Of a stretch of DNA of 3,995 nt, positions 1,378-2,571 are shown piece by piece. Source of the stretch: a plasmid; NCBI RefSeq assembly GCF_055900595.2, contig NZ_JBVWEU010000011.1; one strand, written 5' to 3'. The position numbers were made by a program, and so were the translations under genes. The stretch's first letter is position 1. The number at the start of each line of letters is the position of its first letter. Under the pieces are notes generated by a model that saw only the letters and a program-made list of their open reading frames with translations, made no database searches and was not told the DNA's origin.

Positions 1378-2571
1378 ATGGCGACATTTCATATCAGCTT
1401 TAAAAAATTACGAAGATCAGAAGGTAAATCTTCGGTTTATTTATCTGCATATCAAAACCGAGAAAAGACAAAAGATAATCGAACCGGGGCAACCTGGGAT
1501 TATTCAAAAAAAGAGGGATTTTTCGGCTCTGCTATCCTCTCCCCTGCCGGCACACCTGCCGAACTGGTGAAGGACTCAGGCACCCTCTGGAATGCCGTAG
1601 AGGCTGGCGAGAAGCGAAAGGATGCCGAATTATGCCGTTATCTGGACATAGCCATCCCCAAGGAGCTGGACGACGGCCAGAAGAAGCAGATCGTCCTCGA
1701 TTACTGCCAAGAAAATTTCGTGGATTATGGAATGATTGCAGACATAGCATTTCATGATCTTGATAGTCATAACCCTCATGCTCATGTAATGCTAACTTTA
1801 AGAACTGTTAGCCCAAATGGATTTGGGAACAAACAAAGAGAATGGAATAATAGAGAAAACATTGAAGCCTGGCGAGTTAACTGGGAAATAATAGCAAATG
1901 ACCGATTAAAAAAATATGGTCATAAATCTCGTATTGACTCCCGTTCATTAAAAGACCAAAAAGAAGAGGCAGAAAGAAAGGCTGTTTTTGCTAAAACTCC
2001 GAAAGAGAAAGCCAAGTGGATTTCAAAAACTATTGAACTGGACAGAACGCCAATGACCAGGATACACAGGCACCAATGGCGAAAAGGTCAAAAATTAAGA
2101 GCTATGGAGCAAAAAGAAAAAGCATTATTATTAAAAATAGCTAATGCAACATACTTACAGCAAACCAAACCACCTCAGCCAGAGGAAACTATGAAAATAG
2201 AGAAAAAGCCTCTTGCAAGGTCAATCATTGATAATTTAAAGGCATTATACAAAAAGACCCAGCATATATTTAAATCAAAACCTAATGTAAATAAAAATAA
2301 AAAAGAAGAAAAAGAAGATCCTCAAAATTTCGTTAGTAGTTATGTAATAAATGAATTTGGCGAACATATATTAAAGACAGAGTTAGAAACAAAACCTAAA
2401 ACAGGCACAGGAACCGGAACCGGTGGAAATAATGGAGGCGGAAAAATGGGTTCAGGCTCTGGAATGTCTCCTATGAACCAACCACAACCAAAAATTGAAG
2501 AGCCTGAGCCGGAACCAATGCCGGAATTCGAAGATCAGCAACCTAAGAGGAAGAAGAAATTTGGAATGTAG
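1378..2571 (+). CDS. mobA: Conjugative relaxase, MobA/MobL (MOBQ) family, with low-complexity C-terminal tail
   Basis: 397-aa ORF with AAGGGG RBS (1366..1371) 6 nt before the ATG. N-terminus MATFHISFKKLRRSEGKSSVYLSAYQNRE matches the MobA/MobL N-terminal signature with the catalytic Tyr at residue 25 (TAT 1450..1452; compare RSF1010 MobA Y25). LWNAVEAGEKRKDAEL and the His triad HDLDSHNPHAHVMLT (H codons at 1753, 1777, 1783) are the conserved relaxase motifs. Confidence 0.9.
   Translation: MATFHISFKKLRRSEGKSSVYLSAYQNREKTKDNRTGATWDYSKKEGFFGSAILSPAGTPAELVKDSGTLWNAVEAGEKRKDAELCRYLDIAIPKELDDGQKKQIVLDYCQENFVDYGMIADIAFHDLDSHNPHAHVMLTLRTVSPNGFGNKQREWNNRENIEAWRVNWEIIANDRLKKYGHKSRIDSRSLKDQKEEAERKAVFAKTPKEKAKWISKTIELDRTPMTRIHRHQWRKGQKLRAMEQKEKALLLKIANATYLQQTKPPQPEETMKIEKKPLARSIIDNLKALYKKTQHIFKSKPNVNKNKKEEKEDPQNFVSSYVINEFGEHILKTELETKPKTGTGTGTGGNNGGGKMGSGSGMSPMNQPQPKIEEPEPEPMPEFEDQQPKRKKKFGM

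Follow-up and report, generated by a model that had tools for sequence, protein, structure and literature searches.

A conserved basic end on an exchangeable, disordered tail: a candidate helper-recognition signal in the MobA/MobL relaxase of a small enterobacterial plasmid

Introduction

How does a small plasmid that encodes a relaxase, and neither a coupling protein nor a pilus, present that relaxase to the transfer machinery of a helper? The question is raised by contig NZ_JBVWEU010000011.1 (RefSeq assembly GCF_055900595.2), here called the window: a stretch of 3,995 bp that is one entire small circular plasmid, mobilizable and of the ColE2 type, whose relaxase of the MobA/MobL family carries a low-complexity C-terminal tail ending in KRKKKFGM. 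No coupling protein or pilus genes were found among the open reading frames (ORFs) of the plasmid or their Pfam matches, so that transfer must rely on a helper plasmid. To our knowledge, the part of the relaxase that a helper recognizes is known for very few relaxases. A sequence-only reading of the window had proposed that the positively charged end may be this part, and that tandem repeats in the tail could make its linker variable in length. Here we describe the anatomy of the tail, its predicted disorder, its pattern of conservation, its natural insertions and deletions (indels), and its likeness to the C terminus of RSF1010 MobA, and we weigh what its end might do. The features of the relaxase gene, with window coordinates, strand, and basis, are the following.

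1378..2571, plus strand: relaxase of the MobA/MobL family, MOBQ class, 397 amino acids (aa) (Pfam PF03389, E 5.7e-54)
1378..2166, plus strand: folded relaxase core and helical extension, residues 1–263 (AlphaFold2)
2329..2376, plus strand: conserved anchor F318–K333 (FVSSYVINEFGEHILK), just ahead of the tail (alignment, DNA comparison)
2392..2544, plus strand: low-complexity spacer K339–P389, a Gly/Thr/Ser/Asn part followed by an acidic Pro/Glu part (entropy, composition, and predicted local distance difference test score, pLDDT)
2401..2424, plus strand: imperfect (ACN GGN)4 array encoding (TG)4, which includes the perfect GGAACCGGAACC (reading and script)
2479..2490, plus strand: perfect tandem hexamer CAACCA x2 (CAACCACAACCA) encoding QPQP, which the sequence-only reading had missed (script)
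2500..2517, plus strand: EPEPEP, encoded imperfectly by three non-identical hexamers (GAGCCT GAGCCG GAACCA), inside the acidic patch I373–P389 (2494..2544, net -7) (reading)
2545..2568, plus strand: basic, hydrophobic end K390–M397 (KRKKKFGM), net +5, with F at -3; the stop codon is at 2569..2571 (reading)

A conserved end in an unalignable region

Nearly all homologues of the relaxase cover just 83–85% of it, which is everything but the tail. Aligned with its relatives, the protein falls into four zones, in order a conserved core, a conserved anchor, an unalignable region, and a conserved end. The anchor (consensus across relatives F-x-S-S-Y-x-I-[DN]-E-[FL]-G-x-H-I) is the sole alignable stretch within the C-terminal third; its G328 is invariant and its S320 nearly so, and AlphaFold2 models it at low confidence as a short, weak hairpin (pLDDT ~52–54). 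A comparison of tails among homologues, a check that the sequence-only reading had proposed, gives a distance from anchor to C terminus of 50–73 residues (median 59, and 66 in the window; 33 distinct tails), a range within which the sequence of the spacer is not kept.

All 33 distinct tails of the relatives end in a basic cluster, with a net charge of +2 to +5 over the last eight residues and, in most, a hydrophobic residue at position -3, the last residue being -1. The ends seen among relatives are KRKLKI, RKKLKI, HRKLKR, KRKLKR, HKRFKM, RKRFKM, KRTKPK, and KRKKKFGM, and the variants within the tail type of the window are KRKKKFGM, KSKKKFGM, KSKRKFGM, KTKRKFGM, KTKRKFGI, and KRKKFGM. In a set of 29 distinct tails, a basic residue occupies -5 and -4 in 83–86% (20% in the background) and a hydrophobic one occupies -3 in 79% (22% in the background), with no conservation at positions -12 to -7. 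On these alignments, the basic C terminus is the one conserved element in an otherwise unalignable region.

In a wider set, 137 distinct MobA/MobL proteins, each of at least 300 aa and each representing one 50%-identity cluster, were anchored at the C terminus in the same way. Lys or Arg, mostly Arg, occupies -9, -7, and -5 in 30–36% of these proteins against an 18% background, and the two together are found at -1, again mostly as Arg, in 47% against 18% (p 7e-15). At -4, Gly reaches 31% (background 4.7%, p 7e-24); at -3, hydrophobic residues reach 53% (background 22.5%, p 5e-15); and -2 shows E, G, or S. The pattern may be summarized as R-x-R-x-R-G-hydrophobic-x-[R/L/M]. A combined rule (hydrophobic at -3, with at least two K/R and at most one D/E within -9 to -4) holds for 25.5% of true C-termini and 5.3% of internal pseudo-termini (p 6e-15), and the tail of the window is among those that follow it. 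Annotated relaxases from distant hosts have similar ends, as listed here.

This plasmid's relaxase: ...QQPKRKKKFGM
IncQ1 MobA: ...RQRGMDRGGPDFSM (last residues DRGGPDFSM)
MOBQ4 relaxases: ...RRHDRGWSQ and ...RKHERGWLL
K. pneumoniae pBckp021-5 relaxase: ...KKKKNLGI
Acinetobacter pS30-1 relaxase: ...KMKSRGMSR
S. aureus NES: ...KNKRGMHL
Roseovarius relaxase: ...RRDRGHDYGL
Ti TraA: ...RQSPVMKQ
L. plantarum relaxase: ...HDQGGPKL

Position -3 is hydrophobic in 9/10 of these ends. That of IncQ1 MobA was confirmed by a 100% tblastn match to the last codon of the annotated coding sequence on plasmid pQ1.

Composition, disorder, and repeats of the tail

The sequence-only reading had quoted the 59 residues of the tail (K339–M397) exactly and had placed its start one codon late: the tail runs from 2392, with its stop codon to 2571, and not from 2395 (P340). 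The low complexity of the tail is borne out by an entropy of 3.34 bits over the 59 residues; windows of equal length elsewhere in the protein average 3.86 bits and never fall below 3.55. Six residue types (G, P, K, E, M, and T) account for 44 positions of the tail. The disorder prediction that the sequence-only reading had called for agrees, with a pLDDT of ~30 and no secondary structure over residues 338–397 and ~90 in the core (AlphaFold2). Charge is distributed in segments, +3 over K339–M357, -7 over I373–P389, and +5 over K390–M397. Counted back from the end, the net charge is +5 over 8 residues, ~+1 over 20, -2 over 25, and +2 over all 59.

The GGAACC repeat (GGAACCGGAACC) lies at 2410..2421, where it had been reported. 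The repeats of the tail are minimal, however, with 2–2.5 copies, and are marginal as DNA repeats; Tandem Repeats Finder, run at a minimum score of 30, gave no hit there. Perfect twofold hexamers occur at seven loci in the window, two of them in the tail. These correspond to 12 positions, where mononucleotide shuffles give a mean of 1.4, the excess being mostly in A-rich runs outside the tail.

Natural indels and spacer turnover

Length change at the repeats, as the sequence-only reading had suggested, does occur, both as (TG)4 to (TG)3 and as KKK to KK; it is rare, involves one unit only, and leaves EPEPEP constant. The repeat variants were taken from protein cluster members and their contigs. 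One GGAACC unit is deleted in relative L024, and GGCACA, a different unit of the same (ACN GGN)4 array, is deleted in L025, so that the two (TG)3 variants are independent 6-nt deletions. A third relative, L007, has lost one AAG in the basic patch, giving KRKKFGM. All three in-frame indels among close relatives with this tail type fall at repeats, and no variants of EPEPEP or QPQP were found among sequences with this tail type. The tail is identical in most plasmids of 95–98% overall identity. A metagenome scan for CCTAAAACAGGCACAGG-N(0-30)-GGTGGAAATAATGGAGG returned 3 contigs, all of (TG)4 length, and is uninformative on copy number; the synonymous and nonsynonymous counts among close plasmids (in L002, 4/3 in the 59 codons of the tail and 15/11 in the 338 codons of the core) are too small for use.

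Change on a larger scale is seen across the family. There are at least four unrelated spacer types: the Gly/Thr/Ser then Pro/Glu spacer of this plasmid, a Lys/Glu-rich type (for example, ...EKKEKEESERLRLKEEDEKLKN...), a poly-Asp type (for example, ...GGDDDDDDHDGAGTIDIDMTPEP..., GGDDDDDDHDG...), and a Gln-rich type. The spacer of the window has no DNA or protein homology to those of relatives L011–L014, and a segment after the anchor that most relatives keep, N-W-[DE]-x-x-N-x-x-K-I-K-x-Q, is absent in the lineage of the window. L011 and L012 have the same architecture with other spacers. DNA identity to them is ~83–85% until ~2205–2216; homology then returns solely over the anchor patch at 2309..2382, is lacking across the spacer, and resumes downstream at 94%, from 2551 in L012 and from 2631 in L011. 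The spacer is thus a cassette swapped between conserved flanks. The homologue P0003 is 82% identical overall with an identical tail, by which recombination is indicated. Judging from these comparisons, the spacer alters across the family by whole-cassette replacement, not by slippage.

The codons of the end can be compared in the same relatives. Those of the window, AAG AGG AA[G AAG AA]A TTT GGA ATG TAG, correspond to AAG AGG AAA TTA AAA ATA TAG in L012. L013, a contig of 2,981 bp without a called replication gene, has unrelated downstream DNA and the end codons CGA AAA CGC TTT AAA ATG, and L014, which has a Rep_1 replicon and again unrelated downstream DNA, has ACT AAA ACA AAA CCC AAG. That a basic cluster is kept with other codons, next to unrelated downstream DNA and replicons, would seem to place the end under constraint at the protein level.

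The relaxase core and an internal motif

The match of the relaxase to PF03389 scores 183.7 bits against a curated cut-off of 26.7 and covers residues 17–197. Invariant in a 28-sequence alignment are Y25, H126, H134, and H136 (HDLDSHNPHAH), the motif I Tyr and the three-His cluster of motif III, whose equivalents are Y25 and H125/H133/H135 in MOBQ4 relaxases and Y25 and H112/H120/H122 in R1162 MobA (PMC6856555). With this alignment AlphaFold2 gives a block pLDDT of 83–97 over residues 21–260. Beyond the Pfam relaxase domain lies an internal motif, L-D-R-x-P-M-x-R-I-x-R-x-x-W (residues 220–234, 2035–2079), in which D222, R223, P225, M226, R228, I229, R231, and W234 are kept without exception, or almost so, among relatives whose identity goes as low as 42%. 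It is a candidate internal translocation signal or DNA-binding element. The internal translocation-signal consensus G[ED]R[LM]R[VF]T, reportedly put forward by Lang and colleagues in 2010, is absent from the relaxase, as is a relaxed version.

In two close relatives (L007 and L008; NZ_CP070548.1 and NZ_CP042549.1), which lack a listed mobQ gene, a break in the relaxase frame lies upstream of the tail; these may be pseudogenes or homopolymer errors.

Comparison with known signals and systems

RSF1010 (R1162) MobA, of the MOBQ1 class, is a 709-aa relaxase-primase fusion and, like the protein of the window, a MobA/MobL relaxase of a helper-dependent plasmid. Both carry basic residues close to the C terminus, then a hydrophobic one at -3, and both finish with Met (...RQRGMDRGGPDFSM and ...QQPKRKKKFGM, respectively). 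They differ in that the end of MobA follows a folded primase domain and owes its charge to Arg, whereas the end described here follows a 51-residue disordered spacer and is Lys-rich. The C-terminal 48 residues of RSF1010 MobA suffice to carry Cre through the Agrobacterium VirB/D4 system, and positively charged C-terminal residues are important in this class of signal (PMC10025392, PMC5572225). It has also been reported that cloned positively charged C-termini generally supported Cre transfer by an F-like conjugation system (PMC11288057), and that typical signals of this kind are short C-terminal clusters of positive or hydrophobic residues (PMC3912908). Conjugative transfer of RSF1010/R1162 MobA differs in proceeding through internal signals and MobB (PMC10025392), and no MobB-like gene was found on this plasmid. 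Signals of the VirB/D4 type are summarized as extreme C-terminal and unstructured, with a net positive charge over the last 20–50 residues (PMC10025392); here the basic cluster lies at -8 to -4, in sequence with a pLDDT of ~30, and the charge changes sign between the last 20 residues (~+1) and the last 25 (-2). The -3 position is said to be important in the RalF-type hydrophobic C-terminal signal of Dot/Icm substrates (work of Nagai and colleagues in 2005), and F395 is the residue at -3 here. A eukaryotic nuclear-localization-signal reading of KRKKK was set aside, this being an enterobacterial plasmid.

Other systems resemble this one in part. Cloned, positively charged C-termini also generally supported enterobacterial conjugative transfer in the substrates of the F-plasmid "conjutome" (PMC11288057); those are chromosomal proteins, classed by the charge of their last 25 residues, which in this tail is net -2. 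In the bipartite signal of the Bartonella Bep effectors and pATC58 TraA, a conserved element lies upstream of a charged C-terminal tail (PMC10025392, PMC3912908). The combination of anchor F318–K333 and basic end resembles this formally, as a layout in two parts. A BID-domain signal was rejected, as the relaxase has no Pfam match besides MobA_MobL at E up to 0.01 and the anchor is of 16 residues only; a BID domain has ~100.

The MOBQ4 plasmids (pIGWZ12, ColE9-J, and pYU39_5.1; Garcillan-Barcia et al. 2019, PMC6856555), the best-studied MOBQ plasmids of this size in enterobacteria, are likewise small, enterobacterial, and mobilizable, some with ColE2-type replicons, with an origin of transfer (oriT) between divergent mob genes and a dependence on helper coupling proteins. 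They are mobilized best by helpers with a MOBP-class relaxase of their own, chiefly those with the MPF-I mating apparatus (PMC6856555). In their relaxases, too, the C terminus is basic, with G-W-x-x after the basic residues. They differ in having a 719-aa relaxase with a weakly SogL-primase-like C-terminal part and a MobC gene, where this plasmid has a 397-aa relaxase with a disordered tail and a TraD-like (PF06412) accessory gene. Membership of MOBQ4 was rejected, since identity to pYU39_5.1 is 46.4% over residues 1–194, compared with an average of ~84% within MOBQ4 (N-terminal 300 residues). The TraA/TraC/TraD module of Ti plasmids (MOBQ2) shares with this plasmid a MobA/MobL relaxase divergent from a small TraD (PF06412), with oriT between them; TraA is also hydrophobic at -3, and the layout resembles traA / traC-traD-traG. 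In contrast, TraA is of 1,100 aa and has its own coupling protein, TraG, where this plasmid has none.

A proposed role for the tail, and alternatives

A secretion-signal reading of the tail is plausible on the sequence evidence. The C-terminal region may be seen as three parts, the anchor F318–K333, a disordered spacer of ~51 residues (K339–P389), and the conserved end KRKKKFGM. The end would offer the relaxase, while this is bound to DNA, to a conjugative plasmid in the same cell, either at its coupling protein or at its type IV secretion channel. The spacer would be a flexible tether, holding the end within reach outside the folded relaxosome, and the length of this tether would matter more than its sequence. 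We infer both recognition and tethering, and put at about even the chances that KRKKKFGM is in this way a C-terminal recognition signal, carried on a disordered tether, for the coupling protein or channel of the helper. More speculatively, it may be a variant of a signature that spans the MobA/MobL (MOBQ) class in Gram-negative hosts and Gram-positive ones, a universal handle for coupling proteins or channel ATPases on the free C terminus of the relaxase; this broader proposal is tentative, and we hold it possible rather than probable. No description of a C-terminus-anchored MobA/MobL signature was found in the literature searched.

Several observations weigh against a recognition role for the end. 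The signals of R1162/RSF1010 MobA for conjugative systems are internal, at 204–323 and 322–387 (PMC10025392), and in the window the invariant basic internal motif at 222–234 could be the actual transfer signal or an added one. The acidic patch EEPEPEPMPEFED directly precedes the basic end, and the resulting net charge of -2 over the last 25 residues and ~+1 over the last 20 means that the charge criterion of PMC11288057 (>+1 over 25 residues) would not class the tail as positive. The tail is without the Gly at -4 that is commonest there in the wider family. Because the terminal codons of the window and L012 lie within the 94%-identical downstream block, conservation of the end is in part common descent. 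The p values given above for the wider set assume independent sequences and ignore any general K/R bias at bacterial C-termini. Nor does KRKKKFGM, with one Arg (R391) and four Lys, fit the Arg-rich consensus R-x7-R-x-R-x-R that Vergunst and colleagues are said to have described in 2005.

The same evidence bears on the alternatives. The tail might be a tolerated low-complexity product of a junction, made by recombination between mob and rep and by slippage and without specific function, its basic end coming from descent and a general C-terminal preference for K/R. Much in its history would suit this: the spacer is swapped wholesale between plasmids with 85% and 94% identical flanks, the terminal codons shared with L012 belong to the conserved downstream block, in-frame indels are tolerated, and P0003, with its identical tail on an 82% identical protein, indicates recombination. 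We nonetheless consider it unlikely, as L013 and L014 retain the end with other codons and with downstream DNA and replicons that are unrelated, the length of the tail is confined to 50–73 aa, and a position-specific pattern is common to relaxases of ~30–50% core identity from several phyla. That specificity of position also tells against a tail that binds DNA or stabilizes the relaxosome. Such a tail would grip single- or double-stranded DNA non-specifically, or the TraD-like or 127-aa protein encoded nearby, in the donor or at recircularization in the recipient, with the acidic patch masking the basic end until it is required. The Lys-rich cluster does adjoin an acidic stretch, making the tail bipolar, acidic-then-basic tails recur in relatives (for example, GGDDDDDDHDG...KRKLKI), and accessory genes are always neighbours of the relaxase gene. 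A non-specific patch, however, needs no exact C-terminal placement; the hydrophobic -3 and Gly -4, position-specific in diverse relaxases, are left unexplained; and the acidic patch is absent in many relatives. We judge this quite unlikely.

A further possibility is that the end, like tags of the MuA class, marks the relaxase for an AAA+ unfoldase of the cytoplasm, for example ClpX, which would either keep its level down or help to unfold or remodel it on the DNA before export. The C-terminal ClpX signal of MuA is RRKKAI (PMC8138137), and KRKLKI, RKKLKI, HRKLKR, and KRKKKFGM are built alike, with a basic run and then a hydrophobic residue near the free end of a disordered tail; passage through the conjugative channel requires unfolding of the relaxase (PMC5826034). 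The resemblance is one of sequence only, however, the wider pattern R-G-hydrophobic-E/S-R is less like RRKKAI, and the same end occurs in Gram-positive relaxases, where protease specificities differ, so that we regard a ClpX tag as highly improbable.

The plasmid and its other features

The window is a complete circle, since an ORF from 3957 exits its end and is resumed in the same frame at 1..225. The full length of the window is matched at 99.9% identity by eleven Klebsiella pneumoniae plasmids of 3,998 bp, and ~4.0–4.2-kb plasmids of Enterobacter, Citrobacter, Raoultella, and E. coli match it at 95–98%; the majority of these plasmid matches are typed "mobilizable, MOBQ". The relaxase gene is identical to the copy in NZ_CP033952.1, where it is annotated "MobQ family relaxase" (WP_076997031.1). 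From that plasmid the window differs only by three 1-base deletions in homopolymer runs, the missing bases being G at 274, T at 2781, and A at 3616, and these are probably sequencing or assembly errors, not biology. Besides a small helix-turn-helix protein, the plasmid encodes a ColE2-type Rep (PF03090 + PriCT_1), intact at 288 aa in relatives and here frameshifted by the deletion at 3616 (region 3612–3625), which splits the gene into 3107..3640 and 3655..3960. Upstream of the relaxase gene lie the following features.

463..747, minus strand: TraD-like small accessory protein, 94 aa, divergent from the relaxase (Pfam PF06412, E 1.1e-10)
751..1134, minus strand: 127-aa protein, co-oriented with the TraD-like gene (no Pfam match)
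1303..1334, plus strand: candidate origin of transfer, an inverted repeat ACGTCGC-TT-GCGACGT (1303..1318) followed by ATGGGCCCTGCGGGGC (sequence reading)

The 127-aa gene is found in the same position in L011 and L012, and its product is probably, from its position, a relaxosome accessory protein. Divergent mob genes flank the candidate oriT, an arrangement found also in MOBQ4 plasmids (PMC6856555). A motif GTAT..GGGCCCTG is present twice in the window, at 1317–1328, after the inverted repeat of the candidate oriT, and at 296–311. The second copy (CGTATCCGGGCCCTGTAT) lies in non-coding DNA 3' of the helix-turn-helix gene, and could be a nick-like site or a piece of the replication origin.

Right after the relaxase stop (2572–2611) are three copies of TATATA at 10-bp spacing, TATATAGTGG TATATATTCC TATATAGTAG, with overlapping palindromes. 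A similar array lies 3' of the relaxase stop in L011 and L012, and also in L014 despite its Rep_1 replicon; the array seems to belong to the mob module. A 42-aa ORF at 2649–2777 on the minus strand (MQKKRKRNKHSKFFKMLMKSVNEAVAIHKGEIEPARITTLKM) is convergent with the relaxase gene, and small minus-strand ORFs, called or annotated as hypothetical, stand at the matching position in L009 (2665..2814), L012 (2252..2395), and L014 (1950..2084). An antisense ORF at 2452..2607 (51 aa) was not taken as a gene, the underlying sequence being unconserved in relatives, and a promoter-like match at 2561–2589 was discounted, the number of such matches being within chance expectation. An Rfam scan gave no match in or near the tail. 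Elsewhere, a weak CopA-like antisense RNA match (3028–3118, minus strand; 27.7 bits, E 0.057, below the gathering score) overlaps the rep start at 3107, and would suit antisense RNA control of the ColE2 type (PMC6856555).

Two further observations concern the occurrence of the plasmid. NZ_KP008371.1, a 127,970-bp Klebsiella pneumoniae plasmid, contains at 72131–76131 a full copy of the 4-kb plasmid at 95% identity, which suggests a cointegrate. The protein clusters of P0001, P0002, and P0005 include nearly identical relaxase fragments that were deposited with assemblies of Mycobacterium tuberculosis, Streptococcus pyogenes, and Staphylococcus aureus; these are most likely assembly contamination by this common enterobacterial plasmid.

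Implications

Small MOBQ plasmids of this sort are common in clinical Klebsiella, Enterobacter, Citrobacter, and Salmonella, and they spread solely through the coupling protein and channel of a helper. For this plasmid alone, the tail is an ordinary example of a known signal class, and the family-wide C-terminal signature is the more interesting lead. A universal C-terminal handle, if true, would help account for the use of so many helper systems by MOBQ plasmids, and the swapped spacers (Gly/Thr, Pro/Glu, poly-Asp, and Lys/Glu) would in that case act as tethers or modulate specificity. Should the end be a short C-terminal tag that can be transplanted, it would be an easy target for mutagenesis, a predictor of helper range, and a means of conjugative protein delivery.

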